Shown piece after piece: positions 7,940 through 53,825 of a DNA stretch of 61,654 bases. The stretch spans positions 133,309 through 194,962 of the forward strand of contig CAZMCQ010000001.1 in the NCBI GenBank assembly GCA_964565195.1, in the 5' to 3' direction. The notes beneath the pieces were generated by a model. It had not been told where the DNA came from. It did no database searches and saw only the letters and a list, made by a program, of their open reading frames with translations. Within the stretch, counting starts at the first letter, position 1; every line of letters begins with the position of its first letter. Position numbers and translations under genes: made by a program. The DNA comes from an uncultured Candidatus Saccharibacteria bacterium. Lineage in GTDB: Bacteria > Patescibacteriota > Doudnabacteria > UBA920 > 2-01-FULL-46-14.

Positions 7940-7963
7940 ATAATGAAAAAATAAAAAATCAAA

Positions 7964-8338
7964 ATGGAAAATGACAAAGAAAAATTTAAAAATGAATTTA
8001 AGAAGAGATTATATAATTGGGTTCTTCGTTTAATTAAATTTATTGATAAATTACCAAAAGATAATGTCTGCAATGTTATTGGAAAACAATTATTGAGAAG
8101 TGGAACTAGCGTACTTGCTAATTACATCGAAGCTGGGGCGGCCAGTTCGAAGAAGGATTTTACTAATTTTTTTCACCATTCACTCAAATCGGCAAATGAA
8201 TCCAAAATGTGGTTAACTTTATTAAGAGATACGAACAAAGGCGATCCTAATGAATTGAAAGCATTACTAAACGAATTAGTGGAAATTGCAAACATTCTAG
8301 CTTCAAGTATTCTGACGCTTAAAGGAAAGAAATTTTGA
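7964..8338 (+). CDS. Four-helix-bundle protein (23S-IVP/TIGR02436-like), low GC
   Basis: IGKQLLRSGTSVLANYIEA..ASSKKDF...SLKSANESKMWL; flanked by AAAAT-type repeats on the left and ATTTT-type on the right. Confidence 0.9.
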   Translation: MENDKEKFKNEFKKRLYNWVLRLIKFIDKLPKDNVCNVIGKQLLRSGTSVLANYIEAGAASSKKDFTNFFHHSLKSANESKMWLTLLRDTNKGDPNELKALLNELVEIANILASSILTLKGKKF

Positions 8339-8389
8339 ATTTTTACATTGTAATTTTTATTTTTTATATTTAATTTTTAAATTAATCCC

Positions 8390-9385
8390 TTGCCCCGCAA
8401 AACTTCCATTCCTCGCGCGGAACTCCATACGCACCTCGGGTCCTCCGTGGACCCCGCGATCTTGTGGTCTATCGCGAGCCGGCAGGGCATCAAGCTGCCG
8501 ACGAAAAATTACTGGGACTTTGAGGATATGATCACCATGTCCGGCACGGAAAAAAACAAAAATGTTGATGAGATGCACGATAAATTTTTCTACTGGACCG
8601 AACTTATCCAGTCCTCGCCGGAAGCCATTCAGGAATCAGTCAAAAGCGTGATCGGCGGCGGCTACCGGAAGTGCAACATCGTCCTGCAGGAGCTGCGCTT
8701 CAACCCGATGTTTAGAAACCGCGGCGGCGAACGGGATCTGGACCATATCATTATGTCCGCCATCTGGGGCCTCGATCAGGCGATTCTGGAATATCCGCAG
8801 GTGAAAGGCGGGATTATTCTGATGGTGGAACGAACCCAATCGCTTGCTCAGGGGGAAATTATTTTCAACAAGGCGATTAAATACAAAAACCGCGGCATCG
8901 TCGGCGTGGACATCGCGGGGCCGCAGCGAAAAACGTTTTCCGTAAAAAACTACCGGCCGCTTTTTGAAAAGGCGCGAAGGGCCGGGCTGGGCATCACTGT
9001 CCACACCGGCGAGGAGGGAGATTTGGACGAAATGCGCTATATCGTGAGGCACATCAAACCCGAACGCATCGGCCACGGCGTCAAAGCGGCCAAAGACAAA
9101 TCGCTCATGGCCGATCTCGTAAAAAACAATATCATTCTGGAAATTTGTCCGACCTCCAATCTTCGGAACAGCGTCCTGAAAAATACCGGCGAGCTGAAAA
9201 ACGTGCTCCAGACTTTTCTCAAAAATAAAGTTAAATTCACCATCAACACCGACGGCCCGGAAATGTACCGCACCAACGTCCACAAAGAACAGGAGTTCCT
9301 GCGCAAAAACGGGATCCTGAATGCCAAACAGATCGCGCAGTGCAACCAGTGGGCGTTCGAAGCATCTTTTATAAAAAACGGCTAA
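8390..9385 (+). CDS. Adenosine/AMP deaminase family protein
   Basis: AELHTHL, GVDIAGP, TVHTGE, ERIGHG, EICPTSN, INTDGP amidohydrolase motifs; lies between guaB and guaA. Confidence 0.88.
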   Translation: MPRKTSIPRAELHTHLGSSVDPAILWSIASRQGIKLPTKNYWDFEDMITMSGTEKNKNVDEMHDKFFYWTELIQSSPEAIQESVKSVIGGGYRKCNIVLQELRFNPMFRNRGGERDLDHIIMSAIWGLDQAILEYPQVKGGIILMVERTQSLAQGEIIFNKAIKYKNRGIVGVDIAGPQRKTFSVKNYRPLFEKARRAGLGITVHTGEEGDLDEMRYIVRHIKPERIGHGVKAAKDKSLMADLVKNNIILEICPTSNLRNSVLKNTGELKNVLQTFLKNKVKFTINTDGPEMYRTNVHKEQEFLRKNGILNAKQIAQCNQWAFEASFIKNG

Positions 9386-9477
9386 TTTCTATTATATTTC
9401 GCGAAGCAAATTTCTATCAATTTCTTACGACAATAGAGATTAATTGAAACTCATAGAAATTAGATAGAAACTTTTTG
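9386..9477. repeat. AT-rich periodic palindrome (TTTCTAT.../...ATAGAAA family)
   Basis: tttctattatatttcgcgaagcaaatttctatcaatttc...gagattaattgaaactcatagaaattagatagaaac; same family as the two inserts in rsmA. Confidence 0.7.
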
Positions 9478-9484
9478 TAAGTTG

Positions 9485-29105: not shown

Positions 29106-29207
29106 AAAAATTAAAAATGTAAAATGCAAAAATCAAAATGACAATGAAAAATCCAAAATTTTAAATTTTCAATTGTCATTTTACATTTTGATATTTGAAT
29201 TTTGAAT
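29106..29207. repeat. AT-rich periodic palindrome (CAAAATG/CATTTTG type), no cargo
   Basis: aaaatgtaaaatgcaaaaatcaaaatgacaat...attgtcattttacattttgatatttgaattttg fills the gatC-gatA gap. Confidence 0.75.
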
Positions 29208-30175: not shown

Positions 30176-30235
30176 GAATTAGGTATTAGCTTATAGCTTT
30201 TAGGCCTATAACCTATCAGCTATCTCCTATAAACT

Positions 30236-36148: not shown

Positions 36149-36150
36149 CG

Positions 36151-38819: not shown

Positions 38820-39018
38820 ACTCGAGGCAAAGGCCTCCTCGCTTTATAGCAGACCTTTGAATGTGGCTGATATGTCCTTTCAGCCAAAACTCCACCGAAA
38901 AACCTACAACTACATTCATCAGAGAGGGGGTGATTATCAAAAAGAAAGAGGAATCATAACGCCGCGCCGTGTTGTTTTTAACTCAAGCTAAGTAGTACGT
39001 TTATTCGTGGGGTGTGGG

Positions 39019-39543: not shown

Positions 39544-39611
39544 AATCAGGGCAACACAAAACGGGTCAGCAATGCGTGGCACACATGTCCACACAAAGCT
39601 GACCCGCTTTT

Positions 39612-40694: not shown

Positions 40695-41152
40695 TGGCTT
40701 GGCAGGTTAGCTTGATCCAAACCCTGCACGGCGCGGCCAAACGGCGCAACCGCGTCGCAGACACCGTCCGCCAGAGTGAGCCAGCTCGCGGTCTTCAGCG
40801 TTGCGACTGCGGCAAGATTGCCGGTAAAAGCGGTCGGGTTGCACATCGCGGTCAGGGTCATAATCACCACGCCGATAACCAAAGCCGCGCCGACAATCAC
40901 CCCGAGCACGGGCAGAAGCCAAGGCAAGACAGCCGCACCGGCTGCGGCGGCGGCCTCGCCGGCGGCAGCTGCGCCGGCCTGCACAAGTTTCTTCCCCCCT
41001 TGTCTCACGACTTGTTTGGTGATTTCCTTCCTGGCAATATGCCCCAACGTCTCGTTCCTGCGCCGCTCAAGTTCAGCGCGGTGTGCTTCTTCCCGCTGCC
41101 GCTGCTCCATAAGCGACTCGTCCAAAGTTGGCGAAAAAAACTCGTCAGGCAT
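40691..41152 (-). CDS. Hypothetical membrane protein of the VirB4 cluster
   Basis: Charged N-terminus, Ala-rich stretch and a TM helix; overlaps the next gene by 4 nt. Confidence 0.6.
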   Translation of the reverse strand: MPDEFFSPTLDESLMEQRQREEAHRAELERRRNETLGHIARKEITKQVVRQGGKKLVQAGAAAAGEAAAAAGAAVLPWLLPVLGVIVGAALVIGVVIMTLTAMCNPTAFTGNLAAVATLKTASWLTLADGVCDAVAPFGRAVQGLDQANLPSQ

Positions 41153-41209
41153 ACCTTAAAATTCCAAATTACAAATCACAAATCTCAAATAAATTCCAAT
41201 AATCAATAC

Positions 41210-41626
41210 CTAAACGGATTTCTCCAGTATTGAAGAGAAAATTTTCTTGAGCTCAATGGCCTCGTTCATTAAGGAATTTCCTTCCCTACTAAACGGTTCA
41301 TCGTTTGTTTCGACAATTAACCGAAGCCAATAAGCGGATTCTTTGGCTTCCTTGCGGCAGATTTTGATGCGCATTAGGAAATCTTTCTTACTTAAGGATT
41401 CATTTGCCTCGATGTAATTGGCACCACTAGAAGCGCTAGATCGAATACATTGCTTACCATATTCAAGATTGCTGGCATTCTTCGGCAATTGTTTACAATA
41501 TACTGCAACTGCTTTTGCAAACTCAAAAGTCCGCTCTTCCAAATCATAGGGTTTATTTAATTTTTCCCCATTTGGAATTTGAAGTTTATTTGTTATTTGT
41601 GTATTAAGATTTGGAATTTTATTCAT
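41210..41626 (-). CDS. Four-helix-bundle protein
   Basis: YDLEERTFEFAK, QCIRSSASSGANYIEANESLSKKDF, KEAKESAYWL; flanked by 7-nt AAT(T/C)CA repeats in inverted orientation. Confidence 0.9.
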   Translation of the reverse strand: MNKIPNLNTQITNKLQIPNGEKLNKPYDLEERTFEFAKAVAVYCKQLPKNASNLEYGKQCIRSSASSGANYIEANESLSKKDFLMRIKICRKEAKESAYWLRLIVETNDEPFSREGNSLMNEAIELKKIFSSILEKSV

Positions 41627-41627
41627 C

Positions 41628-43442
41628 TTATCGCCCTTCTAGTTCTTCTTTGGCCCGCTGGATCTCCAGGCGCTGGCGCGGGTCAGTGGTGATGATCTGG
41701 TCTTCGGTATAAGAAGCGACCACCCGCACCGCGACGTGCTTTAAACCCGCAAAGAAGATCCCCTCGCCCACCTCGCTCTCCAACAGCAAATATTTCTCGC
41801 CTTCGGTGAGAAAAAATGTCTCGGCCACGATGTCCATCGCGGCCGGCGACTGCTTTAATAACAGCTGAATCGAGGAGTTGGTCACAATCGGTTTGCCATA
41901 AGCGCTCTGCAAAAAATCCTGCACGTCCTGGGTGATGGTGGTTACGCCGAGGTAGTATTTGCGCGACCGTTTGGCAATGCCGAAGAGAAACCGCGCCGAG
42001 TCCTCGTGCTGCATCATCCACCACGCCTCGTCAATGACCAGAATGCGTTTTTTCAAGGTGGAGCGCACCTCGTTCCAGATGAAACCGAGAATGACATAGA
42101 TGGCGATGGGCCGCAGGGTGTCCTCGAGATCGCGCACCGAAAACACCACGAGCTGGTTGTCAAGATTGATGTTGGTCGGCTGGTTGAAGATGCCGGAAAA
42201 CGTCCCTTCCGTGTATTTGGAGAGACGCTGCGCCAGACTCTCGCCGCCCTCGATGCCCGTGAGCACGTTGACGAGATCACTCATGGTCGGCACCTCGACA
42301 GTGGTAAAATCCGACTGCGGCGTGATGTCGCGCGTCGCGTAAGTCTCCCAGATGGCGCGATCCATAATCGCTTCCTCGGCGGGAGTGAGCTTGCCGAGCA
42401 TCAGGTTCATGAGCCCCAGAAGGTTGATCACGGTCGAACGCATCACGTCCTCCGGCGACTCGCCCTCCTGCGGCTTGATGAGGTCAAATGGATTGATGCG
42501 CGAGTTGGAATTCAAAGAGACGTTGAGGTAGGAGCCGCCAACCGCGTCCGAGAGATGTTTGTACTCATTCTCGGGGTCAATCACGATCACGTCCGTGCCG
42601 ATCATCAGAGAACGCAAAATCTCCAGCTTCACGGCATAGGATTTGCCGCTACCCGATTTGGCAAACACGACCGAATTGGCGTTTTCCATCTGGAAGCGGT
42701 CAAAGAGGATCAAGCTGTTGTTGTGCCGGTTGATGCCATAGAGAATGCCGTCCGAAGAGGTAAGCTCCGAGGAGACAAACGGAAAAGTCGTGGAGAGGGG
42801 TCCGGTGTTCATATTGCTGGAAACGGCGAGCTCGTCATTGCCCAGGGGCAGCGTGGAGTTGAACCCGGCCTCGCCCTGCAGCACCGCGGCTTTGGCGATC
42901 ACCAGTTTCGAGCCGAGCAGGGATTCCAGATTGGCCGTGATTTTGTCCAGGCCCTTCAGGTCATCCGCGTAGATCGTGAAATAGAGCGAGAAGCGGAAAT
43001 AGCGCTCGGTGCCCTGCTGGAGGCGATCACGCAACTCCTCCACGTCGTGGTAGGCCGTCTCGAGCATCGGGTCGCGGACAATGCCCTTCTCCTGATTCAT
43101 GGCAATTGTGGCCTCGAGCTGGCCGACTTTATTTTTGAGCTTTTTCATCACCACGTCCGTCTCCATCGGGTAGATGAACATCGAGATGTCCATCGCCACG
43201 TCCAGATTGACGATCGGCGCGAGCCAGTTGGTCGAAAGATACCGCGGATAGGTGAGCACAAAAAACGTCCGGGCGTATTTGCCGGAAACCTGCAGGTAGT
43301 TCGACTCGATCTGCATCGCGGTCGGCGCGATCAGATCGCGAAGGCTCGTCACCCCCTGCTGGTAGGCGCGCTCCGCCTCCAATAATTCGTGCGACAGGGA
43401 CTTCGGCGTAGCTGAAGAATTCTTTTTATTAAACAAACTCAT
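41628..43442 (-). CDS. VirB4/TraC-like conjugation-type ATPase
   Basis: NANSVVFAKSGSGKS Walker A, VIVIDPENEY, INPFD, LVIDEAW Walker B, KRSRKYYLG..TITQ. Confidence 0.9.
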   Translation of the reverse strand: MSLFNKKNSSATPKSLSHELLEAERAYQQGVTSLRDLIAPTAMQIESNYLQVSGKYARTFFVLTYPRYLSTNWLAPIVNLDVAMDISMFIYPMETDVVMKKLKNKVGQLEATIAMNQEKGIVRDPMLETAYHDVEELRDRLQQGTERYFRFSLYFTIYADDLKGLDKITANLESLLGSKLVIAKAAVLQGEAGFNSTLPLGNDELAVSSNMNTGPLSTTFPFVSSELTSSDGILYGINRHNNSLILFDRFQMENANSVVFAKSGSGKSYAVKLEILRSLMIGTDVIVIDPENEYKHLSDAVGGSYLNVSLNSNSRINPFDLIKPQEGESPEDVMRSTVINLLGLMNLMLGKLTPAEEAIMDRAIWETYATRDITPQSDFTTVEVPTMSDLVNVLTGIEGGESLAQRLSKYTEGTFSGIFNQPTNINLDNQLVVFSVRDLEDTLRPIAIYVILGFIWNEVRSTLKKRILVIDEAWWMMQHEDSARFLFGIAKRSRKYYLGVTTITQDVQDFLQSAYGKPIVTNSSIQLLLKQSPAAMDIVAETFFLTEGEKYLLLESEVGEGIFFAGLKHVAVRVVASYTEDQIITTDPRQRLEIQRAKEELEGR

Positions 43443-43443
43443 A

Positions 43444-43545
43444 TTAATAAATCAAAATGTAAATATCAAAAATCAAAATTACAGATTAAAATTTTAAAAT
43501 TTTTAATTGTCATTTTCCATTTTGATTTTTAATTTTTTATTTATC
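43444..43545. repeat. AT-rich periodic palindrome, empty version of the flanks of 44274-44648
   Basis: atcaaaatgtaaatatcaaaaatcaaaattaca is shared with about 44234-44263; right arm ttttccattttgatttttaatttt is shared with 44641-44664. Confidence 0.8.
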
Positions 43546-44226
43546 GTTGACTTCCATTTTCTCCATCGCCTCGGTATGCAGCGGCGAGGCGGCCTCGAAA
43601 TTATAAGACTGGTACAAAAGCTCGATGAGTTCCTCGGTGCGAAGCTGCAAGCTCCGCAGGCCCATGCCGCCAAGCTCCGAGCTAACATGCGCCACGCGCT
43701 CGTCGAGTTTGGCGCGCGCTGCGGCAAACTCGCTCTGGTTTAAGGCGATCTGGCCGGCCGGATTCAGAATTTTTGTGAATTTGGCCAGGAAGCCCTGTTT
43801 CGCCGCTTCCGCCGAATAGGGCACCACCACGTAAAACGTCTTGCTCATGATGTTGGCAAACTCAATAAGTTTGGCCACATACTCGATGTATTCGCTCATC
43901 TGGATGCGCAGGAGCTCATTGGTCTGCGCGCTTTCCAGCGAGCGCATCTTTTCGAGATAGCCGTTGATGTCGAGAATGCGCGAGTGGATGAGAATTTGCA
44001 CGGGAAAATCGAGCGAATTCAAAAAGCCCTGGTAGGCCGCGCCGATCGCATTCTGTTCATCTTCGGATTTCAAGGCAAAGTTGGTCGAGGAGACGGCCAG
44101 GATCGCGCGCAGACTGCCGTCTTTGAGAATGACCGTGTCCTCGCGGATCTCGGAAACATCCAGATATTTCTGGGTCGCTTCCGTCGGCTTCACGCCGGCC
44201 AATTTTTTGGACTGCATCTCAACCAT
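43537..44226 (-). CDS. Conserved CPR protein of the VirB4 cluster (TraE/VirB4-N-like)
   Basis: TQKYLDVSEIREDTVILKDGSLRA...S.NFALKSEDEQ.AI...Y.GFLNSLDFPVQILI.SR. Confidence 0.75.
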   Translation of the reverse strand: MVEMQSKKLAGVKPTEATQKYLDVSEIREDTVILKDGSLRAILAVSSTNFALKSEDEQNAIGAAYQGFLNSLDFPVQILIHSRILDINGYLEKMRSLESAQTNELLRIQMSEYIEYVAKLIEFANIMSKTFYVVVPYSAEAAKQGFLAKFTKILNPAGQIALNQSEFAAARAKLDERVAHVSSELGGMGLRSLQLRTEELIELLYQSYNFEAASPLHTEAMEKMEVNDK

Positions 44227-44273
44227 AATAAGTCAAAATGTAAATATCAAAAATCAAAATTACAATTTAAAAT

Positions 44274-44648
44274 CTAAAGTTTTTTATTCTTCAGAGTTAG
44301 TATACTTGAAGCCAATATATTTGCTAATTCTATCAGTTCATCTAATAACTCTTTTAATTCATCCTGGCTGCCTTTTTTCGTATCCCTCAATAGCGTAAGC
44401 CACATTTTCGATTCGTTTGCAGATTTCAGAGAGTGGGTAAAAAAGTTGATAAAGTCTTTCTTGGAACTAGCGGAATTGGCTTCGATATAATTGGCGAGGA
44501 TACTGGTTCCGCTTCTTAACAATTGTTTACCAATAATTTCACAAATAGAATCCTTCGGCAACCGGTCAATGAAACTGATGAGCTTAAGAACCCAGTTGTA
44601 TAATCTTTTCTTAAATTCATTTTTAAATTTTTCTTTGTCATTTTCCAT
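44274..44648 (-). CDS. Four-helix-bundle protein, paralog of 7964-8338
   Basis: Same length (124 aa) and 22 differences by manual alignment (about 82% identity). Confidence 0.92.
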   Translation of the reverse strand: MENDKEKFKNEFKKRLYNWVLKLISFIDRLPKDSICEIIGKQLLRSGTSILANYIEANSASSKKDFINFFTHSLKSANESKMWLTLLRDTKKGSQDELKELLDELIELANILASSILTLKNKKL

Positions 44649-44663
44649 TTTGATTTTTAATTT

Positions 44664-45125
44664 TTAAATTTCATTGAGCCATTGTTTGTTGATGTCGCCG
44701 CTCGAAACAAGCCGCTCCTCCTCGGCTGCTTTCTGATCCAGAAGATAGGCGAGCTTCCGGAGACGCGACTGCCGCTCTTCAGTGATCGGTTCGGGAGCGA
44801 GCTTGGCAAGCGCTGTTTCTTTTTTCACGATCGGGGTCGGGCTGGCGCCGCGCACAAACACCCGGTAGCGCGGGGTGACGAAAAACTTGGCGAACGCGGG
44901 CAGATTGGCGGTGATGGGTTTGCCGTTGAATTGGCCAAAAGCCAAAAACGCAAACAGCCCGGCGGTCGGCAGGGTGAAGACAAAAAACAGCAGCCCCACG
45001 CCCAAAATGGACCAGAACATAAACGCGAGCAGTCCGCCGCCAAGCAGCACCAGAAACTGCTTGAGCGTGAGCGGCCCGATGATCCGGTCCGGAACGTCAA
45101 CGAATTGAGGAACACTATACTGCAT
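44664..45125 (-). CDS. PrgI/VirB3-like membrane protein
   Basis: MQYSVPQFVDVPDRIIGPLTLKQF, two TM helices; upstream of the VirB4-like gene. Confidence 0.88.
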   Translation of the reverse strand: MQYSVPQFVDVPDRIIGPLTLKQFLVLLGGGLLAFMFWSILGVGLLFFVFTLPTAGLFAFLAFGQFNGKPITANLPAFAKFFVTPRYRVFVRGASPTPIVKKETALAKLAPEPITEERQSRLRKLAYLLDQKAAEEERLVSSGDINKQWLNEI

Positions 45126-45199
45126 TTTGGTTTCAGCTTCGGGATTAAAAACTAATTTATTATACCATCATTGCTCGCAAAGGCAAAATCTGCAAATTC

Positions 45200-45284
45200 C
45201 TAATTATTCTAATTAACCTAAAAACCCAATTGGGAATTGGGATTTGTTTAGAATAATTAGAGCAATTAGGTCAATTAGAAATTA
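45200..45284. repeat. CTAATT/AATTAG periodic palindrome, empty
   Basis: taattattctaattaacctaa...ttagaataattag..caattaggtcaattagaaatt; same arms as those flanking 45857-46012. Confidence 0.75.
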
Positions 45285-45818
45285 ACTCAAGGTTTTCCTC
45301 AAACTTGCTCTGAAATCTGCCAATGCTTCGAACTCCGCGTGGTTTAGTATCTCGGACTCCCCCCCGCCCATGAGCTTCAGGCCCGCGGAGACGTAAGCGC
45401 GATGCAAGGGGCTCTGTTCAAAGGCCTGCCGCACCGTCTCGCCTGACGCGCGGCGGCTGGCCACCATATCTTTCATTTTTTTGCCAAGTTCTTCCAAAAA
45501 CAGATACACGGACGGCGCTTTGCGCATGGCTTCAATATTTATCTGCTTTAAGGATTCCACATCAGTGGGCAGCGCGGGCGCGGGTTTGATGTCGGCTTTG
45601 GGCAGAAGAGACGGGTGGACAACCCCCACTCTTTCTCCCCCTTTGTAAGGGGGAGATGAAGAGGGGGGCGGCATTCTAACAGATAACAATTTTGTGAGCT
45701 CATCTACCTGTATCGCGGTCATCTTGGGCAGTAGGAAAAGCCACTCCGACTTTTCCTGGGAGGATAATATGCTTGATTGCTGAATTTTCTGCTTGAGAGA
45801 GTCTGAATCTGGAGCCAT
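45282..45818 (-). CDS. Hypothetical protein with palindromic insert
   Basis: SQEKSEWLFLLPKMT..QVDEL N-terminus; insert PPPSSSPPYKGGERVG at about 45622-45670. Confidence 0.6.
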   Translation of the reverse strand: MAPDSDSLKQKIQQSSILSSQEKSEWLFLLPKMTAIQVDELTKLLSVRMPPPSSSPPYKGGERVGVVHPSLLPKADIKPAPALPTDVESLKQINIEAMRKAPSVYLFLEELGKKMKDMVASRRASGETVRQAFEQSPLHRAYVSAGLKLMGGGESEILNHAEFEALADFRASLRKTLS

Positions 45819-45856
45819 GGGGGAAATTTCTAATTAACCTAATTATTCTAATTGAC

Positions 45857-46012
45857 CTAAATAAATCCCAATAATAAATTACCCAACTTTCTTAACTTTA
45901 CCAATTGATTGATAATCGGTTTGGTAATTTCATTCTTCGGCATTACCGCACAAAATTTGATAATATTTTCCCCAAACTTGGCAGTTCTTTCCTCCAAATC
46001 ATATTTAGCCAT
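45857..46012 (-). pseudogene. Truncated four-helix-bundle gene
   Basis: MAKYDLEERTAKFGENIIKFCAVMPKNEITKPIINQLVK matches the family N-terminus, then runs into the repeat arm and stops (51 aa); the SGTS..ANY half is missing. Confidence 0.8.
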
Positions 46013-46060
46013 TCCGGTATTGGGAATTGATTAGAATAATTAGAAATTAGATCAATTAGG

Positions 46061-47350
46061 TTAATTTTTCTTGACCTTATCCTCCAGTCTCTTCAGCTTC
46101 TCCTCGATGTCTCTGTCTCCCGCGACAATCTCGCCGTGGTCGCCGTCCGAAACTTTCCCCCGCACGATCGCCTCGTTCACCGAGAACGGTTTGTACTCAA
46201 TATTTTCCTCTCCCCTCGCGGGAGAGGTCGGCCCTACCGGGCCGGGTGAGGGGGCTGATCTTGCGACCGGCTTCGCAGTTTCTCCCCTCATCTTCTGCAG
46301 CTCGGCCAGCGTTTCTTTGAGCACCTCCTCGTCAATTACTGGTTTTTCTTTCACCCTCCCCCCACCCCTCCCATCAAGGGAGGGAAATTTTTTCATTCCC
46401 TCCCCCTGGTGGGGAGGGCGAGGGAGGGGGGTAACAGAAGGGGTTATCTTTGGTTCTTCGGTCTTTACCACCGGCATAACCGGAGCTTTTGGTATCGCCA
46501 CAGGCGCCGCCTCACGACGCCTAGGCGCTGGAGGTAAGGGCAAATTTGTCCTCACCACTGGGATGCCTGAACCGCCAAATCTTAACCAATCATAAAGCTC
46601 GAGAACTCGAAGCAGAAATTTTTTATTTTCTTCACTAAGTGCCCGGACATTAAGACTCTTGGTCATATAGGAAATTCTCTCGACGGCTCCCGAATGAAAT
46701 TCCGAACCCGCCACGGAGCGCGAAGCCTGAAGATATTCGCGAAGATAATTCCCAACAGTCGCTGGCAGAGGACGATCTGCCCCGGAAAACAAGATATAAT
46801 TTTTCCCGAGTCTGTATTGCGACGTCGCGATCGCATTGGCAAAAGCCCAAGCAATTTTTCCTTCTAAAAGAATATCGTTATTATCGTCTAAAACTAGCTG
46901 AATTTTCGCCCGAACGTTTATTTTATGCTGCATTGCGAAATATAAATTTTCCTGAACAAGCTTTTCGGCCTCCTGCAGCGGCACCGTATTTAGGGCTACG
47001 AATTTGAGCAAAATCAAAAGTTCCTGATAATGATTATAAATATCAGGGGCAGTCTGGCGCAGGGTTGGGTATAATGGCAAAAGCGTTCCTTGCAAGAGCG
47101 TAATCGCTTTGACTGCTTCTTCACGGTTATCTTGCCGAATAATTTCATCCACAATTTTAGAAAACTCTTCCACAACTTTTGGCTCTGTAAGCTGGCCGGC
47201 ATCGGTAATAAATGGTGTATCCGTGACAGCTAAAGGATGATTTGGATCAGGTAGTTCGCTTGCCAAAAGATCGAATACTTCCGCTGCGGGAGGCGCGGGA
47301 GTAAAAGAATTGTATATTTTTTTTACCTTGTCGAGAAATTCATTCACCAT
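46061..47350 (-). CDS. Hypothetical protein with Pro-rich C-terminus and two palindromic inserts
   Basis: 429-aa ORF in the operon; inserts at about 46205-46257 and 46354-46443. Confidence 0.65.
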   Translation of the reverse strand: MVNEFLDKVKKIYNSFTPAPPAAEVFDLLASELPDPNHPLAVTDTPFITDAGQLTEPKVVEEFSKIVDEIIRQDNREEAVKAITLLQGTLLPLYPTLRQTAPDIYNHYQELLILLKFVALNTVPLQEAEKLVQENLYFAMQHKINVRAKIQLVLDDNNDILLEGKIAWAFANAIATSQYRLGKNYILFSGADRPLPATVGNYLREYLQASRSVAGSEFHSGAVERISYMTKSLNVRALSEENKKFLLRVLELYDWLRFGGSGIPVVRTNLPLPPAPRRREAAPVAIPKAPVMPVVKTEEPKITPSVTPLPRPPHQGEGMKKFPSLDGRGGGRVKEKPVIDEEVLKETLAELQKMRGETAKPVARSAPSPGPVGPTSPARGEENIEYKPFSVNEAIVRGKVSDGDHGEIVAGDRDIEEKLKRLEDKVKKN

Positions 47351-47359
47351 AATTTTATT

Positions 47360-50300
47360 TTATCTGCCGCCTTCTCGCTTAAAAAGCTTCTGAACTTGGT
47401 CAATCCGACTCTCACCTGAAGGTGCTGCACCTTTCGTCTCGCCATAGTGAACTAACTGATTCATAATTTCTTTATACTGATTCCTGCGAGTATCTCTAAG
47501 GCCCTGGCGCGCTAAAACTTGTGATACCCCTTCAATCTTTTCGACTTCTACTGTGTCATCCAATAATTCCGCTGCCGCCATTATCACTTGCTTATTTTGT
47601 CGTTCAGCAACGGCTTTTGCCTGACTCGGGTTCATCTGACCACGGTTAAGTAAAAATTTAACGGCTGGATAATTTTTTAGATAATATGCAACCAAAGTCG
47701 GCTCGATAAGGGTAGTCCTTTTCTGGGTAATATCATAATCTGCATCGGGAAGTTCGCGCGAACCGACGAGGCGGTTACCTTCGGAAAGCACCCGGCCAGT
47801 GGACATTTTGTCCAGCTCGGCACTGACTTCCGGCTCGCGTTCATCCGGACGTTTAAAACGGAGTTTGCCGTTTTCACTGATATACATACGCATTATCTCA
47901 AAATGCTTGGTATCTTCGGCTATGTCACTTACATCGCTCATAATCATCATTGAGGCTTCGTGCCCCAATTTAAATTTTTCTTCCAAAATCAATTTTCGGA
48001 AATTTTCGGCTCCCTCTGGCGAAAATTCAAAAAATTCGCCTTCTTTGTGAGCCTTATGATCCGCACTTTCTTCGGCCGACATATTGCGCGCGTATCTCGA
48101 ACTGTTTATTAACTCATTTTCATTATAAGTTTTGGTCAGATGTTCCATAATGGCAGCCGCGCGCAGCGGCTTCCCTTCCCTCTCCGCGCTGTCAAACAAA
48201 TCCACCAGTTCGTGCCAGTTATTGGTATGAATGGTTTTCTTTTCTTCATCAATCGCGGAGCGAATTTTTTGTTGGGTGAGATAATCATCCGGGGCAATCA
48301 GTTTTTTTCCCTGACTCTCAAGTGCCCGAGCCTGAATAAGTTTATCCTTTCGCTCCTGTTCATATGGGGCTTCCAACTGCTCCGCCTTTTTAATTAATTC
48401 TTCGGCTTTGATGCGTTTGTCTATGGCACCGACACCGGGCTGCGCTGCAGCTTCTTCCCGCAATCTCCCCGCTTGCCTACGCAAGTTTTTAGCTTCCCGC
48501 ATTTGCTGATTATCGGGAAGAACCGCTCTTGCTTTTGTGCTTTTCGCCTGATCAAGGAGCTCGCGCCCTTTTTTCTCCCCCCCTCCAAGCACTCGTCTTA
48601 TACCTGCCGGGCTCCAGTATCGCTGGAAAAAGGTTGTGGGGGACGCCAAGGCAGATTTGCGGTCAAGGGCCTTGGCCGCTCCTTTCGCCTCTCTGGCTTC
48701 CCGGTTAATTTCGCGAGATTTTTTCCAGCCCTCAATCCATTTGCCAGGTCGAATATCAACTCCGGTTTGCTCTAAAAGTTTTTCTGCTCCTAAAGTCGCA
48801 AGGGCCTTTGAACCAAGCAATGCTCCTTTACCTATTCCTTTTATCCCCTTTCCCCCCAGCGCATACGGGGCTTTGAGGCCGCGCTCGGCCAGACTCGTGA
48901 TCGCCGAGGCGCCGAAGATGCTCATATTTTTGGTGACGAGCAGCGCGGCCCACAAAAAGGCCAAAATCATCAGATAGACGATCATCAGCACGAGGAACTG
49001 GCTGAAATCAACCTCGCCGCCGGCCTTGGCGGTAAGATTGCGCAAATAAGTGAAGATGTCGTCATTCGTGCCTGCGCCCGGGATGATCTGCAGCCCGTCG
49101 CGGTAGAGCGCGAGCGCGAGGCGCAGAAAGAACGCCATAATCGGCGCGAACAGCGCGTATTTGATGAAGTTGTTCCACCATTTTTTCGCCTGATCCGCGG
49201 TGGCCGGCAGAATGGTGAGCCCGTAAGCCAGCGGCGAGAGGATGAGCAAAATCCAGAGCGCCACGGTCCGGATCACCATAAAAATGGCGAGCGCGCCGAA
49301 CGTGACGAAGACCATGAGCTCCAGCGTAAACTGGAACAGCAGCGTGGCCGTGGCGGCCAGGGCCGTGGAGCTGTCAAAGGAAAAATTCTTAAACGCGCCC
49401 ACGAGAAAATCCGCGTGCTCGGAGACCAATGACTGAAAAACATACTTCACGCCCGAGATGCCGTTTAACTGGCCCTCCACCTGCACGGTCACGGGCAGGA
49501 AGGTAAACTGCACGACATCCAGAACCTGGATGATGATCCGGCCGATGACCAGCGAGAAGTTGACCAAAAGCGCCATCAAAATCAGTTTCGCGAGCAGTTT
49601 TTTGTAATTGTAGCTTTCCAGCTTCAGAATCGTGCCAAAGGCGATGACGATGAGCGCCAGAATGAAAAACATATTGACAATGTCGCGCACGAACGTCCAC
49701 CCCGCGATGATCGGCCCGCTCGCAATCGCGCCAGCGTCGAGCTTCAGGGTGGCCTCCAGAATCGGCAAGAGGATCAGGGTGATGAGCCAGTAGGAAATCG
49801 CGCGGACGAGCGCCAAGATCGCGCCGATGATGATATTGACCGTGGAGATAAGCGGCCCGCCAAGATCGCCGCCTGAAGTGCCAGTGCCTGCGCTCTGCGG
49901 CCGGTCATCGGCCGTAACAACGGCTGAAAAACTCGCGGTCGCCAGGGAATCCGAGCCCGCCAGGGCCTCCACCCGGCCGGCGTATGAGACCGGCGGCGAC
50001 CCGCTCGGCACAAGGTTGTACTCGCAGACAAATTCCGTGGCCGTGCCGCTGCTTGGGGTATTGGCCGCAGCCGGCGGCTGGCTCGTGTCGCAATCAAAAG
50101 TGTACCGCGTCGGGTTCCGCCCCGTCGCTCCCGGAAGATAAACTATCTCATAAGCCATGGTGGCCTTGCCGGAAGTGGGAAAGGTCTTGCTTTTCAGGTT
50201 GACACTCAACTGCGCAGGGCCGCTCGTATCCGCCGCGGCGATCGTAACCTGCTTGGTACCAAGATAAGGCGTCTCAACCGCGTTTTCACCGCTGCCGACC

Positions 50301-50680
50301 GCATAATTCATCTCGGCCTCAAGGTTGTTTGCGCCAACCTGAAATTTGGTCGCGCTGATGCGAAAGCTGACGATCACCTTGCCCTGGCCGGCCGGATCCC
50401 GGGTGGATTTCACCTCGGTGCAGGCGCCGCGAGTCTGGCCAGCGCGGCAGACTCGTAAAACCGCTTCCACTAAATTTCCCGGCTGCGCGGCGCGGTTTTT
50501 GAGCTGCATGGTCGCGCTGACCTGATCCCCGATTTTCGGCGCTGCTGGATCAAAAATAATCTCCACCGAGTCCGGCAGGATTATGGCCTCGGCCGGCAAG
50601 GGCAAAAAGCCCGCGAGAAAAACCGCCAGGAGGACTAGGAGAAGAAATTTATGGAAATATTTGGAAATAAATAGAAACAT
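47360..50680 (-). CDS. Large VirB6/TrbL-like polytopic membrane protein
   Basis: Signal peptide, Ig-like N-region, then WTFVRDIVNMFFILALIVIAFGTIL, KLILMALLVNFSL, IRTVALWILLILSPLA, WW..F.KY..FAPI..FFL; helical cytoplasmic tail. Confidence 0.8.
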   Translation of the reverse strand: MFLFISKYFHKFLLLVLLAVFLAGFLPLPAEAIILPDSVEIIFDPAAPKIGDQVSATMQLKNRAAQPGNLVEAVLRVCRAGQTRGACTEVKSTRDPAGQGKVIVSFRISATKFQVGANNLEAEMNYAVGSGENAVETPYLGTKQVTIAAADTSGPAQLSVNLKSKTFPTSGKATMAYEIVYLPGATGRNPTRYTFDCDTSQPPAAANTPSSGTATEFVCEYNLVPSGSPPVSYAGRVEALAGSDSLATASFSAVVTADDRPQSAGTGTSGGDLGGPLISTVNIIIGAILALVRAISYWLITLILLPILEATLKLDAGAIASGPIIAGWTFVRDIVNMFFILALIVIAFGTILKLESYNYKKLLAKLILMALLVNFSLVIGRIIIQVLDVVQFTFLPVTVQVEGQLNGISGVKYVFQSLVSEHADFLVGAFKNFSFDSSTALAATATLLFQFTLELMVFVTFGALAIFMVIRTVALWILLILSPLAYGLTILPATADQAKKWWNNFIKYALFAPIMAFFLRLALALYRDGLQIIPGAGTNDDIFTYLRNLTAKAGGEVDFSQFLVLMIVYLMILAFLWAALLVTKNMSIFGASAITSLAERGLKAPYALGGKGIKGIGKGALLGSKALATLGAEKLLEQTGVDIRPGKWIEGWKKSREINREAREAKGAAKALDRKSALASPTTFFQRYWSPAGIRRVLGGGEKKGRELLDQAKSTKARAVLPDNQQMREAKNLRRQAGRLREEAAAQPGVGAIDKRIKAEELIKKAEQLEAPYEQERKDKLIQARALESQGKKLIAPDDYLTQQKIRSAIDEEKKTIHTNNWHELVDLFDSAEREGKPLRAAAIMEHLTKTYNENELINSSRYARNMSAEESADHKAHKEGEFFEFSPEGAENFRKLILEEKFKLGHEASMMIMSDVSDIAEDTKHFEIMRMYISENGKLRFKRPDEREPEVSAELDKMSTGRVLSEGNRLVGSRELPDADYDITQKRTTLIEPTLVAYYLKNYPAVKFLLNRGQMNPSQAKAVAERQNKQVIMAAAELLDDTVEVEKIEGVSQVLARQGLRDTRRNQYKEIMNQLVHYGETKGAAPSGESRIDQVQKLFKREGGR

Positions 50681-50732
50681 CAGAGAAACAGATAGAAATA
50701 TTTAGAAACTTTTGAAAACATATTGAAACTTA

Positions 50733-51122
50733 TTAAGATTCGTTGTTCTTGGATTTATAAGTGGCGGAGATAAAATTGTTCAGCTTAATGGAAAGTTTTA
50801 TTCCATTTTCTTTGAGAGCCGAGTATCGCTGCTCGTCGATTTTGTTTCGTTCTTTCAATAACTCCAACCAATGATCAACGCCTTCAGCAAGCGAGGCCCG
50901 AGCGTTGTAATAAAATTTAATTTTATCAAGATAATGAAACCTGCCATAGCCCTCTGCAATGTTTGCGCCCACCGAATCAATGGCTGAAATAAATTGATCT
51001 CCCATTACTTTCTTGGTCTGCCAATCTAAGAGAATGTATATTTCCCATCCTGTTTTTGATAGCTCTCTGGCGAGCTTGTAAACTTCCAAATCTTCGAGTA
51101 ATATGTATTTCTTTTTTTCCAT
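50733..51122 (-). CDS. Four-helix-bundle protein
   Basis: LEDLEVYKLA, DQFISAIDSVGANIAEGYGR, F...ARASL.E; flanked by inverted GAAA/TTTC periodic arrays (about 50641-50722 and 51115-51225). Confidence 0.92.
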   Translation of the reverse strand: MEKKKYILLEDLEVYKLARELSKTGWEIYILLDWQTKKVMGDQFISAIDSVGANIAEGYGRFHYLDKIKFYYNARASLAEGVDHWLELLKERNKIDEQRYSALKENGIKLSIKLNNFISATYKSKNNES

Positions 51123-51224
51123 GAGTTTCCATTTTGTTTCTACCCGTTTCCACTTATTTCAATCCTATTTCTATTTATTTCCATCTGTTTCCACTTCGTT
51201 TCTATTTATTGCCCTATATTTCTA

Positions 51225-53825
51225 TCATTCCCGCGGTTTAACTAGAGGAGAGAGAAACAGGGTTTGGGCGCTGGTGCTGATAGAATCAAAGCTTAGGGTT
51301 CCGCAGCCCACTGATTTCGTTGACGTTCCGGTTGTAAGAGATATCCCGAAAGTATAAACACCATCACCCGGAGGGACCCATTGTAGGCCACCGCTACCGG
51401 GAGCAGTGATGGAATTCTCAAAAACTTTACCGGAGGTACCGGATTTGACAGCCCAAACACTGGCTCTTTCGGCCGCAGACTGTATAGTCCAATTGATCGA
51501 CACTGATGGCCCCGATTTTGTTGCGGTACATTGATCGGCTGGGGGGGGCGGCAGTCCGCTACCGGCCACAGTGACGGTCACCGCTGGAAATTGGACATTG
51601 ACCCCCGGCCCGGAGAGGCCACCGGTATAGGTGGCGGCTGTGGTGGGGCCGGGATTGACGGTTCTCGAACCGATGGCGCCAAAACCACTGGCCACAAATG
51701 AATTACTGCCTGCTCCGCCGGCATTCAAACCGCTGATCGTCACTGTCAAATCGCTGCGACCAGCAGATACAGAAGGGGCGTTCCAACTCAAAGTAAATGC
51801 AGCCCCAGAGCTCGGTATGGGATTAGGAGAGGCAGTAAAGGTCGCCTGACTCCCCGGCGGCGATCCGCCAGGGTTGGTGACAATCACCGAACAAGACGCG
51901 GATTTGGCCGCGCTGGTTACGGTTACGGTTTTCTGGCCGGCCGATGAATAATACGTCGCAAACGTCGCCCCTGTGCCTTCGGGGTTGCCGCTGCCATTAG
52001 CTGTCCAGGAATATGTACCATCCCCGCCGGAAGCAGTGAAGCTTGCCGTTTGGTTGACATTGACAGTCTGCGAAGCTGGCGAACAGGATACCTCGTTGCC
52101 CGGCCCGCCGCCGCCGGTGATGGTGCTGATATTCACCACTGCCACAGCAATAGTTTCTCCGTCGACTAGCAAGCTAAGCTGCGTATCCCTGGTCGGTTTA
52201 AAAGTGCGCGTACCGATTTTTTCTTCGGCGCCTACTGCCGGCTCGAGATCAGGAGGCGGATCTACGGAAATGGCGACCGCACCGGTGAGACTTCCTACGC
52301 TCCAGTTAACCGTGACGCTGTCGCCGGAATTGACGATCTCCGTAGTCTTACCATTCACGCGGATGAATGGGTTGTTTATATTTGGATCGTCACAGGCAAC
52401 GATATTTTCCTGGCAGCCGGCGATAATAATATCGTCGGGCGGTGTAGTCGGGGTCGGACTCTGGTAGTTTGGAGCCGTAGTTTCTGTGGAGTCCTTCGGG
52501 ACACCGCAGGAATTTTTTTCAGTCAGGAGCCGCGCGTTTTTTTGTTTGAAGATCGTATTGACGATGAGGTCCGAAACAAACCCTGCGATAACTTTGGTTG
52601 CGACGCCGGAAAATGCGACATCACCTTGCTCGCTTTTCGATTTGAACAGTGAGTCGAGGGTTTTATCCAGAGAACTATTTATCGTGGTGGCAGCGCGCGT
52701 AATCGTGTTGCTCGCGGACCGCGGCACTTTGTTACCGGTAGAGATAAGCTCTAGGTTGGACGCCGCGCGGCCCTGCGCCTCCACGCTGTAGGCCAGATCC
52801 TGCATTGAGAGATATTGGAACTGCGGCGAGGCGTACGGGTTGCCGAGGCGGGCCATCCGGCGGTAGTAATCCGCGGTCGAACGCGGGTCAAGCTCGCTCA
52901 TCAAAAACCCGCGCGCCTTGGTCGCCTGATAGAGCGCGAGGTTGTTGAGGGCCTGCGTGTTCACGCCGCCGCAGGAGACGGCGCTCGTTAACATCGCCAG
53001 CCCCCCGCGCACGAGGAGAGTTTCCTGCTCCGGATTAAGCCCGCCCGCACCAACATTGATCTGCCCGCTGCCGGGCGTGATGCCCGAGACAAACCCGTCG
53101 GACGCGGTATTTTCTACCTTAAGCTCGACCTTAAGCTGTTTAATAACCAGGGCATTGGATCGGCTGGAAATATTTAGATAATAGGCTGTGGACTGCTGCG
53201 GGGAGACGGTTTTTGTTCCGGAGTTGGGTATGCTGATCAGATTGTTCGCACCGAATTCTTTGCCCTGGAGCTGCACAAAGATATTATCGCCTGCCACATC
53301 CCAGCGCAGCTCCGCTGTCCTGCCCTTCTTAATTTCTCTGGGATTGACATTGAAAGATGAAGATGTAACTTTCGCGGGTATGTTTAAGCCAGCCAATGCT
53401 TCGACTTTTTTGGGGTCGCTGAATAGCGGCGAAGAATTTAAAGGTAACTGGTTTGAGCCGGTAACAATGCTGGCTAAGTTGGTATCCTTCGGTTCATTTT
53501 TAATATCTTTATTAGATTTGTTGGGGTTCAAAAGCGAATTTAGCTGCGCCCCGATATAGACATCAAAGCCAAGCGCGTCAGAGTAGTTGAGAATATTTTT
53601 TATTGTATGGACGCTCTCCAGCTTGGTCAGAATGTCCACGCTGAATTTGGCGATAATCTTCTGCATCAAAGCTTTCGCCAAAGCTTTGACAAATTCAAAC
53701 GCGATCTGGATCGCCGCGTCTATGCCGAAAAAGGCCTGGGCTTTCTGAAAATCAATGTATAGCGAAAAACCAAGCAGGCCCACTGTCGCCACCGCAACCA
53801 GACAAATTGTCGCAAAAATCCTCAT
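51225..53825 (-). CDS. Large exported protein with helical N-part and multiple Ig/PKD-like repeats
   Basis: N-terminal TM; FNVNP..I..G....L.W, VSCSPASQTV.V...ASFTASGG.GTYSW, ATFTASPNPI; S/G/T/P-rich. Confidence 0.7.
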   Translation of the reverse strand: MRIFATICLVAVATVGLLGFSLYIDFQKAQAFFGIDAAIQIAFEFVKALAKALMQKIIAKFSVDILTKLESVHTIKNILNYSDALGFDVYIGAQLNSLLNPNKSNKDIKNEPKDTNLASIVTGSNQLPLNSSPLFSDPKKVEALAGLNIPAKVTSSSFNVNPREIKKGRTAELRWDVAGDNIFVQLQGKEFGANNLISIPNSGTKTVSPQQSTAYYLNISSRSNALVIKQLKVELKVENTASDGFVSGITPGSGQINVGAGGLNPEQETLLVRGGLAMLTSAVSCGGVNTQALNNLALYQATKARGFLMSELDPRSTADYYRRMARLGNPYASPQFQYLSMQDLAYSVEAQGRAASNLELISTGNKVPRSASNTITRAATTINSSLDKTLDSLFKSKSEQGDVAFSGVATKVIAGFVSDLIVNTIFKQKNARLLTEKNSCGVPKDSTETTAPNYQSPTPTTPPDDIIIAGCQENIVACDDPNINNPFIRVNGKTTEIVNSGDSVTVNWSVGSLTGAVAISVDPPPDLEPAVGAEEKIGTRTFKPTRDTQLSLLVDGETIAVAVVNISTITGGGGPGNEVSCSPASQTVNVNQTASFTASGGDGTYSWTANGSGNPEGTGATFATYYSSAGQKTVTVTSAAKSASCSVIVTNPGGSPPGSQATFTASPNPIPSSGAAFTLSWNAPSVSAGRSDLTVTISGLNAGGAGSNSFVASGFGAIGSRTVNPGPTTAATYTGGLSGPGVNVQFPAVTVTVAGSGLPPPPADQCTATKSGPSVSINWTIQSAAERASVWAVKSGTSGKVFENSITAPGSGGLQWVPPGDGVYTFGISLTTGTSTKSVGCGTLSFDSISTSAQTLFLSPLVKPRE

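Follow-up and report, generated by a model that had tools for sequence, protein, structure and literature searches.

We describe small, AT-rich gene cassettes in a stretch of 61,654 nucleotides (nt), referred to below as the window, from an uncultured Candidatus Saccharibacteria bacterium (GenBank assembly GCA_964565195.1, contig CAZMCQ010000001.1, positions 133,309–194,962 of the forward strand; GTDB lineage Bacteria; Patescibacteriota; Doudnabacteria; UBA920; 2-01-FULL-46-14). Each cassette is a unit of inheritance made up of a 5′ arm, a small open reading frame (ORF) for a four-helix-bundle protein and a 3′ arm, and it sits at the DNA level in the spacer of a few nt between a stop and a start codon, always in the orientation of transcription. 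The arms are short-period, mostly 7-nt, inverted repeats that are conserved in sequence and differ between gene subfamilies, and comparison with related genomes suggests that the cassettes were gained and lost independently at many junctions. We regard them, as the probable explanation, as selfish cassettes of the 23S rRNA intervening sequence (IVS) type that reside in protein-coding operons, with derivatives like MITEs (miniature inverted-repeat transposable elements) and with arms that serve as conserved cis sites. The cassettes had been noted in an earlier reading of the bare sequence (the original prediction), to which the present analysis adds ORF-less hairpins, a second cargo gene (GxxExxY) in relatives and the conservation of the arm sequence.

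Cassettes between Co-Oriented Genes

Four cassettes with an intact gene and one with a truncated gene were found, in agreement with the original prediction. Cassette A (7940–8389, + strand) has a 5′ arm at 7940–7993 that extends into the first codons of the ORF, an ORF at 7964–8338 encoding 124 amino acids (aa) of the PF05635 family and a 3′ arm at 8331–8389, and occupies the whole spacer from the stop of an IMPDH-family gene at 7939 to the start of an adenosine deaminase gene at 8390. Cassette B (41153–41627, − strand) contains an ORF of 138 aa at 41210–41626 and a 3′ arm at 41153–41209; its 5′ arm (41570–41626) is translated, with the arm repeats making up the N-terminal 25 codons, and its ATG overlaps the stop of the VirB4-like gene (TAAGATG). 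Cassette C (44227–44663, − strand; 5′ arm 44617–44663, ORF 44274–44648, 3′ arm 44227–44282) encodes a protein of 124 aa, 82% identical to that of A, and is located between the PrgI-like gene (stop 44664) and gene g229 (start 44226). Cassette D (50643–51226, − strand) carries an ORF of 129 aa at 50733–51122, with a 5′ arm at 51106–51226 built of GGAAAY units of ~10 nt and a 3′ arm at 50643–50734 that overlaps the predicted start of a gene of 1106 aa. Cassette E (45819–46060, − strand) is decayed, with a 5′ arm at 46018–46060, a 3′ arm at 45825–45873 and a truncated ORF at 45857–46012 of 51 codons, the first ~37 aa of which are B-like (tblastn to B, E = 4e-4).

All five cassettes lie between co-oriented protein-coding genes and fill the spacer from the upstream stop to the downstream start, one at the IMPDH-family/adenosine deaminase junction and four in the VirB4/PrgI operon, and none was found in a 16S or 23S rRNA helix. 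Their guanine-plus-cytosine (GC) content is 0.30–0.37 versus 0.52–0.60 in the flanks, so the AT richness, common orientation and exact intergenic placement that had been claimed for them were borne out in 5/5. No transposase, integrase, REP-associated tyrosine transposase (RAYT, of the Y1 HUH type) or reverse transcriptase was detected among the 44 window proteins scanned, which agrees with the description of the element as transposase-less.

The four intact ORFs A, B, C and D match PF05635 with E-values of 5e-18, 6.5e-13, 3e-18 and 1e-20, respectively (49–74 bits, cutoff 33.8), and TIGR02436 with 67–82 bits (cutoff 24), which places them, as had been proposed, in the family of the 23S rRNA IVS protein. 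The RxxxSxxxNxxE motif of this family (Zhang & Ye 2014; Lin et al. 2006) was observed in A (RSGTSVLANYIE), B (RSSASSGANYIE) and C (RSGTSILANYIE), while D carries the variant SxxxSxxxNxxE (SAIDSVGANIAE), in which S replaces R. The proteins are basic (isoelectric point 8.6–9.6), and the nearest solved structure is the five-chain entry PDB 2RLD (sequence match E = 5.6e-14 for C and 6e-4 for D), from which the cassette protein is probably oligomeric, and pentameric. Membership in an anti-phage defence or phage family was considered and rejected, as the PADLOC and PHROGs models gave no PHROG match and only a weak match of A to part of PbeC (E = 0.0025).

Repeat Units and Pairing of the Arms

Inverted arms were observed in all five cassettes as periodic arrays of 45–120 nt; cassettes A, B and C have a tandem period of 7 nt, D one of 10 nt and E one of 9 nt. 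The original prediction had assigned each cassette a repeat unit of its own, and this stood in part: in a cross-pairing matrix the arms of B, D and E pair with their own partner only, but A and C form one arm family, and the units GAAAT and CTAATT given for two of the periodic arms are only the cores of longer units, as the periods of 10 nt (D) and 9 nt (E) imply. Pairing of the flanks beyond shuffled controls had been set beforehand as a test of the element. With hand-set arms and 500 dinucleotide shuffles, the arm duplexes of D (z = −7.2, 0/500), E (z = −6.6, 0/500) and B (z = −3.2, 2/500) surpassed the controls, that of C was marginal (z = −2.1, 19/500), and the arms of A paired no better than the shuffles (z = −0.8, 107/500); the pairing signal of A is compositional, because A-rich and U-rich arms pair in any order. 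In minimum-free-energy folds of the whole-cassette RNA the 5′ arm pairs with the 3′ arm in 5/5, leaving the ORF in the loop, with 34–67 long-range pairs compared with a median of 8 in random 450-nt windows (7/60 reaching ≥30), and a transcript is thus able to form the long stem that had been envisaged.

At the level of the family, the median arm duplex z was −2.4 for 42 cassettes and 0.0 for 60 control small genes from empty loci (Mann–Whitney p = 5e-7). This comparison used fixed windows and is noisy, since ORF starts are sometimes mis-set and GC-rich flanks intrude (cassette B has z = 0.09 with fixed windows versus −3.2 with hand-set arms), and the result is therefore conservative. The best period was 7 nt in 25/37 family cassettes, and the 5′ arm was purine-rich in 32/37 (p = 7e-6). 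A function of the purine-rich 5′ arm as a source of stop codons in all frames was rejected, with 157 stops in the 5′ arms and 144 in the 3′ arms.

These controls bear on the trivial explanation, in which the arms are chance low-complexity, AT-rich spacers beside ordinary small genes. The behaviour of cassette A would fit it, and A-rich and T-rich tracts pair trivially, but the explanation is refuted by the partner-specific pairing of B, D and E (z = −3.2 to −7.2), by the difference between cassettes and control genes, by GC-containing units (CACGTAA, GTAAGY, GGAAGCT and AATTCGT) in the same inverted arrangement and by the recurrence of the pattern in 9/10 genes of other phyla described below, and we give it practically no credence.

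Occupancy in Related Genomes

By the VirB4-like ATPase of the window, the nearest relatives are bins of Candidatus Doudnabacteria and other Patescibacteria (Candidate Phyla Radiation, CPR), with 86–63% protein identity. The loci sampled were anchored either on VirB4 homologues (80 species-representative loci) or on g229 homologues (80 loci from metagenomes), and family genes were identified in them with an iterated profile. The VirB4-anchored loci contained 29 family genes in 19/80 loci, and the whole set contained 51 in 38/171 loci, all on the operon strand. As 11 of the 171 loci were oriented on the family gene itself, about 40 informative genes in 27/160 anchored loci are left, and ~40/40 of these are co-oriented with the operon.

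The prgI–g229–VirB4 core is syntenic in the relatives whereas the cassettes are not, their site varying by genome (before prgI, between prgI and g229, between g229 and VirB4, or after VirB4). Among 74 loci, the length of the prgI|g229 spacer is bimodal: it is mostly 0–20 nt, 65–144 nt in nine loci, several of them hairpin-like, and 411–483 nt in eleven. The eleven filled junctions hold at least six different arm/gene types or GxxExxY cargo, with arm units that include CAAAAAT, GTAAGY, CACGTAA, CAGATAA, CTAATTN and GATAGTT, and in every one of them the insert starts right behind the upstream stop and ends right before the ATG of the downstream gene. The C-type cassette that the window carries at this junction was found there in one other locus only (L003). 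Conversely, the A/C-type gene with the same CAAAAAT arms was detected at the unrelated junctions IMPDH|Ada, prgI|g229, signal peptidase|HisRS and DegT aminotransferase|epimerase, and its protein is 80–87% identical in bins assigned to different CPR lineages. Had there been losses only, every junction of the ancestor would have had to hold every type, so independent gains are simpler. The presence and absence of cassettes thus support the mobility that had been proposed, and the synteny and vertical inheritance in relatives that had been named as evidence to the contrary hold for the core and not for the cassettes. No target-site duplication was visible at seven A/C-type sites or between filled and empty junctions, a comparison made among sites of which none is a near-identical empty one.

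An identical four-helix-bundle protein is encoded after the signal peptidase gene in eight contigs (L084–L090 and L091), followed by HisRS in seven of them and by SecF in one, a difference which suggests a rearrangement with its breakpoint at the cassette. In addition, a terminator-like hairpin and a promoter-like site (TTGNNN-17-TATAAT) were observed in L013 (6560–7032 and 7500–7979), L016 (7840–8324), L009 (~8150–8275) and L018 (~7900–8013), located either downstream of the 5′ arm and before the ATG, or immediately upstream of that arm, so not all copies need depend on read-through transcription.

ORF-Less Hairpins and Arm Conservation

A tandem-repeat scan and direct reading revealed at least nine gene-less hairpins of ~100 nt in other AT-rich spacers of the window, with the same arm families, two of them weaker. 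Five belong to the A/C arm family and lie on the − strand. The one at 43443–43542, between g229 and VirB4, keeps ATGGAAAATGACAA of the ORF and equals positions 1–43 plus 391–437 of cassette C with 84/90 identical positions (93%), which is C minus the ORF from about codon 10 through the stop. The other four, which are 81–85% identical to the ends of C, are located at 29100–29208 (gatC|gatA spacer), 55918–56021 (between g345 and KsgA; keeps AATGACAAAGAAAAA of the ORF start), 56962–57068 (between the UvrD-like gene and g345; fold z = −5.5) and 59240–59356 (upstream of the UvrD-like gene). Within 61 kb this arm family thus has two full and five ORF-less copies, and further copies were found in other genomes. 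A hairpin with E-type CTAATT units occurs at 45190–45285 (− strand, between g178 and the PrgI-like gene; fold z = −4.6), and one with D-like TTTCTA/TAGAAA units at 9386–9478 (+ strand, between the adenosine deaminase and GMP synthase genes), which folds weakly (z = −1.8) and has a polarity opposite to that of cassette D. The seven solos that were folded have z-scores from −1.8 to −5.5. A probable decayed hairpin at 24985–25077, upstream of MiaA, consists of a periodic AAATCCN arm with a partial inverted partner, and a short periodic hairpin with TTAGG/CCTATAA units is present at 30176–30235 in the LemA|HtpX spacer. Elsewhere in the CPR, the arm motif TTGTMATTTTGATTTTTG also flags more solos, including three in L158. 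The copies form a decay series from the full cassette through truncated E as the intermediate to the solo hairpin, and the ORF-less copies behave like MITEs beside their parent elements. Four of the five cassettes and three solo hairpins sit in the VirB4/PrgI type-IV-secretion-like cluster (39600–54800, − strand), and horizontally exchanged operons may be preferred sites of the cassettes.

Protein similarity and the sharing of arm 6-mers are correlated (Spearman 0.39; Mantel 0/2000), which indicates that gene and arms are inherited together. In A/C-type genes the nonsynonymous divergence (pN) is 0.06–0.18 compared with a saturated synonymous divergence (pS) of 0.63–0.95, so the protein is under strong purifying selection, and the idea that A and C are recent duplicates was rejected on account of the saturated synonymous sites. 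The non-coding arms of seven A/C-type cassettes are 81–83% identical, versus 39–48% at third codon positions, and blocks such as AAAAATCAAA and ATTTTGATTTTTGAT are invariant in them. Even with a chance identity of ~0.5 taken into account, the A/C arms are conserved in sequence and not in pairing alone. The first four codons of the A/C-type genes (ATGGAAAATGAC; 7964–7975 and 44637–44648 in the window) are invariant at synonymous positions in the seven copies, which suggests that the arm constrains the N-terminal coding sequence.

Purifying selection on protein and arms, the retention of hairpins after loss of the ORF and the exact stop-to-start placement in essential operons such as gatCAB could also be understood if the modules were domesticated, with the hairpins as host signals for RNA processing or stability, similar to repetitive extragenic palindromes (REPs), which stabilise the mRNA upstream of them, the protein as a host factor acting on the hairpins, and the patchy distribution a product of frequent loss and occasional recombination. 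We consider this unlikely. Most orthologous junctions are empty, with spacers of 0–20 nt, and the operons therefore work without the module; at least six unrelated arm/gene types and other cargo occur at one junction, and the same type occurs at unrelated junctions of distant CPR lineages with 80–87% protein identity, for which loss alone is no economical account, given the ancestor it would require.

A Second Cargo in Related Genomes

The prgI|g229 junction of L002, L016, L027 and L047 holds another gene of ~130 aa, identified as GxxExxY (TIGR04256, 76–96 bits, cutoff 35), a member of the PD-(D/E)XK nuclease superfamily. These cassettes carry inverted arms of their own with ACGAAT/CCGAAT units and were located at 8811–9234 (L002), 8862–9290 (L016), 8744–9124 (L027) and 8707–9147 (L047), with further ones at 6935–7330 and 8236–8679 in L005, 9577–9999 in L013 and 7654–8064 in L001. 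No GxxExxY gene was found in the window, for which the term transposase-less is correct, while its sister cassettes encode a possible nuclease. Extension of the arm rule to GxxExxY genes outside the CPR was rejected in 3/3 cases: none of three plasmid genes has periodic inverted arms (0/3), one having a short inverted repeat of 16 nt and two having direct repeats.

A nuclease of this kind would permit spread of the homing type, as known for free-standing homing endonuclease genes. A nuclease, maybe GxxExxY, would cleave the allele that lacks the cassette once relatives have exchanged DNA, and the cassette would be copied in during repair, the four-helix-bundle cassettes being passengers or helpers. 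The armed GxxExxY cassettes at the same junctions, the concentration of cassettes in the type-IV-secretion-like operon and the position of several plasmid cassettes of other phyla between restriction-modification or defence-type genes are in line with such a route. It is very unlikely in our view, as nuclease activity is putative for both families, the window itself has no GxxExxY gene, the plasmid genes outside the CPR have no periodic inverted arms, and the occurrence of one type at non-homologous sites and of multi-copy solos would be left unexplained.

RNA or DNA Level

If the stem were maintained in the sense RNA, an excess of G·U over A·C mismatches and a better fold of the sense strand than of its complement would be expected. 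Neither was observed: the arm mismatches comprise 69 of the sense type, 68 of the antisense type and 213 transversions, and the sense fold was better in 15/31 cassettes and worse in 16/31. Selection of pairing in the sense RNA is thus unsupported, and so is the RNA-level element of the original prediction, although one is conceivable. With no wobble bias and no strand-specific folding, the inverted symmetry is equally well explained at the DNA level, for instance by paired protein-binding arrays or by a hairpin in single-stranded DNA.

The same figures count against retro-mobility, a route in which the cassette would be excised from the transcript at the stem and bound by the Avd-like protein that it encodes, after which a reverse transcriptase acting in trans would make a cDNA that integrates at a new site between genes. 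In favour of this route, the family has a relative in Avd, which serves the reverse transcriptase of diversity-generating retroelements (DGRs) as a cofactor (PMC6182149); every copy is oriented with transcription, the ORF can be looped out when the transcript folds, and IVS RNA is excised by RNase III (PMC4990558). However, no reverse transcriptase is encoded in the window, cleavage of the stem would strip the outer arm units from the mobile copy and yet the arms are conserved to their ends, and some cassettes have a terminator-like and a promoter-like site that separate the 5′ arm from the ATG. Taken together, we judge retro-mobility to be quite unlikely.

Occurrence in Other Phyla

Ten family genes outside the CPR were obtained by tblastn from an annotated plasmid collection, all in plasmid-labelled records, and their flanks were read. 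The hosts are Nostoc (two), Pseudanabaena, Gloeocapsa, Planktothrix, Riemerella, Bernardetia, Chondrinema, Candidatus Chlorohelix and Treponema, and the phyla sampled are Cyanobacteria, Bacteroidota, Chloroflexota and Spirochaetota. All ten genes are co-oriented with the downstream neighbour (10/10), and most lie between two genes of one operon, such as RND adaptor|permease, DrmD|MmeI, helicase|N6-methylase and DUF1156|HEPN, with several of the plasmid-borne cassettes in operons for restriction-modification or other defence-type functions. In 9/10 there are inverted arms of short period, most of which are clear heptamers. Their units include (AATTCGT)4 mirrored by (ACGAATT)4 in Nostoc flagelliforme, GGGAAAA/TTTTCCC in Nostoc ATCC 53789, AAATCGT in Planktothrix, GATGAAG in Chlorohelix, TTAGTGA in Bernardetia and AAGGTTY in Riemerella.

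Earlier descriptions touch on parts of this pattern. In Coxiella burnetii the IVS is a selfish element of 428 nt with an S23p ORF, preceded by two or three tandem GACAGAT heptamers whose number varies among strains and the first of which is cut by RNase III, and old hypotheses hold that IVSs are relics of transposition or mobile elements (PMC4990558). The heptamers before the S23p ORF make the link to the IVS family stronger than the original prediction had noted. In CPR bacteria, 23S_rRNA_IVP ORFs occur in insertions of 16S and 23S genes (PMC11270868), and eighteen 23S_rRNA_IVP genes were found inside cas loci, for example between cmr3 and cmr2, and read there as functionally associated (PMC3936711). 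Intergenic heptamer repeats, often as convergent inverted pairs, were catalogued in Xanthomonas, Nostoc and Beggiatoaceae without a link to PF05635 (PMC4692102, PMC4679880). A literature search returned no description of PF05635 genes as armed operon cassettes, though with incomplete coverage an earlier description is possible.

Comparison with Known Elements

The ORF-containing 23S rRNA IVSs of Leptospira, Coxiella burnetii, Brucella and Xanthomonas are the closest likeness: they encode a PF05635/S23p protein, are AT-rich relative to the host, have inverted ends, which pair into a stem and loop out the ORF, carry tandem heptamers of variable copy number ahead of the ORF, and are regarded as selfish and horizontally transferred (PMC4990558). 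Unlike them, the cassettes lie between protein-coding genes and not in helix 9, 25 or 45 of the 23S rRNA, and have many copies and several arm/gene types per genome, and RNase III excision would apply to them by analogy. The IVSs of enterobacteria include ORF-less ones of ~100 nt, which parallel the solo hairpins of the window.

The solo hairpins also resemble the Correia/nemis elements of Neisseria and other hairpin MITEs (ERIC, RUP, BOX), being intergenic inverted repeats of ~100 nt that are multi-copy and co-transcribed. Correia hairpins in mRNA are said to be cut by RNase III, reportedly the finding of De Gregorio and co-workers in 2003. MITEs, however, have one conserved terminal inverted repeat, a target-site duplication and parent insertion sequences that encode a transposase, whereas the cassette arms are periodic heptamer arrays that differ by type, no duplication is visible, and the parent encodes a four-helix-bundle protein. 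The REP/REPIN-RAYT systems are likewise intergenic palindromes, often between convergent or co-oriented genes, and non-autonomous, their hairpin being recognised by one trans-acting RAYT (Y1, IS200/IS605-like), but REPs are imperfect palindromes of 20–40 nt, whereas the cassette arms are periodic and enclose a gene, and no RAYT/HUH protein is present in the window.

Integron attC cassettes share with the present ones small, promoterless, co-oriented genes and a recombination site that is set by its structure, not its sequence, and varies from one cassette to the next. They have a single 3′ attC, an array beside intI/attI and a tyrosine recombinase; here, in contrast, each gene has an arm on either side, the copies are scattered through housekeeping operons and no integrase was found in the window. 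The Avd protein of DGRs is a homologous basic four-helix bundle that oligomerises as a pentamer, binds nucleic acid and the polymerase and acts as cofactor of the reverse transcriptase (PMC6182149). Unlike in DGRs, no reverse transcriptase is present in the window, no template or variable repeat lies near the cassettes, and their neighbours are housekeeping or secretion genes. To our knowledge, Avd genes are not enclosed by inverted heptamer arms.

Finally, 7-nt tandem units in spacers are shared with the intergenic heptamers, namely the short tandemly repeated repetitive (STRR) sequences of cyanobacteria, GGGAATC of Xanthomonas, GGGGAYT of Nostoc and TAACTGA of Beggiatoaceae. The Xanthomonas heptamers form 70–75 convergent inverted pairs (PMC4692102), and heptamer repeats were noted beside start codons and suspected of mobility (PMC4679880). 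The cassettes of Planktothrix, Nostoc and others in our sample outside the CPR carry such heptamer units.

Proposed Mechanism and Its Weight

In the mechanism that we propose, the cassette would have no promoter of its own and would be read through with the host operon, and in the transcript the arms would close into a long stem from which the ORF is looped out. By analogy with the 23S IVS, the stem may be a substrate of RNase III, and the flanking cistrons would thereby be spared any harm from the insertion. The arms would act as cis-acting sites, with the four-helix-bundle protein of the cassette (basic, Avd-like and oligomeric) probably recognising each of them as an array of repeats. The breaking and joining of strands would be supplied in trans by the host or by another element, and the nucleic acid that moves may be double-stranded DNA, a hairpin of single-stranded DNA or RNA.

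Several points weigh against the reading of IVS-type selfish cassettes. The RNA stem and the RNase III step are taken over from the IVS, and the mismatch counts and sense folds give the RNA stem no support; the arms of cassette A do not surpass their shuffles, and Pseudanabaena has a family gene without arms (1/10 outside the CPR). Low-complexity arms have a chance identity of ~0.5, and part of their apparent conservation is therefore compositional, while the gene–arm correlation is also expected from co-inheritance alone, without binding of the arms by the protein. None of the 44 proteins scanned was identified as an enzyme of movement, and no insertion or excision event was caught among the relatives. 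The closest relatives found have 86% (VirB4, genome scan) and 68% (g229, metagenome scan) protein identity, a distance which means that element ends, target duplications and the direction of gain or loss are deduced from distant comparisons, and all CPR sequences are metagenome assemblies.

A wider generalisation, which we put forward tentatively and hold to be possible though doubtful, is that PF05635 proteins are sequence-specific binders of their own heptamer arrays and form a new class of transposase-less mobile or self-maintaining cassettes across phyla, of which the rRNA IVS is only the best-known site, with STRR sequences, GGGAATC pairs and similar repeats as ORF-less relics. What the IVS/S23p protein does and where rRNA IVSs come from have been open questions since ~1990, as has the meaning of the abundant spacer heptamers. 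The cassette described here, inserted from stop to start in operons and with type-specific conserved arms and ORF-less derivatives, joins thousands of genes annotated as "four helix bundle protein", IVS-like stems and heptamer arrays in one testable object. It offers an explanation for family genes in cas, restriction-modification, efflux and housekeeping operons, which had been taken for functional partners of their neighbours, and it also provides a recognition rule for genome annotators. Nostoc, Planktothrix, Riemerella and Bacteroides are the cultivable hosts to which it points, and the cassettes may bear on how streamlined CPR genomes tolerate selfish DNA.

Gene Content and Other Repeats of the Window

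The window contains housekeeping genes for S2, EF-Ts, RF1, PrmC, the IMPDH-family enzyme, adenosine deaminase, GMP synthase, L25, FtsW, DnaE, ThrRS, MiaA, GatCAB, LemA, HtpX, RecG, KsgA and UvrD, and a type-IV-secretion-like operon with VirB4/TraC- and PrgI-like proteins. Rfam models detected five tRNAs only and no rRNA in the window, and the hairpins match no known RNA family. A perfect match to a sigma-70-type promoter (TTGACA-17-TATAAT, extended TG) was observed at 54826–54854 (− strand), in the AT-rich spacer upstream of a gene of 319 aa, and probably marks an internal start of the operon.

A second repeat family is a GC-rich palindromic element of ~87 nt with two CCTCCCC-loop-GGGGAGG hairpins and an A-rich spacer between them. 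Copies were located at 6176–6262, 6630–6715, 10258–10346, 37738–37790, 38143–38232, 39823–39875, 46351–46432, 55139–55225, 56800–56850 and 57560–57646. The element lies inside at least eight long ORFs with the frame intact (PrmC twice, GMP synthase, RecG twice, g360, g429, KsgA, g345 and UvrD) and encodes ~29 aa of the form SPxPNPSxQGxGxKKxxxxPLxGEGxGGV, in which it resembles the Rickettsia palindromic elements; it is rare in relatives, with 1–2 hairpin matches in 11/171 loci. The KsgA-like ORF (rRNA adenine dimethylase; 54841–55917) also contains two direct GAAAY-periodic repeats of ~90 nt at 54961–55050 and 55529–55619, which may be an internal duplication or repeat arrays inserted into the coding sequence.

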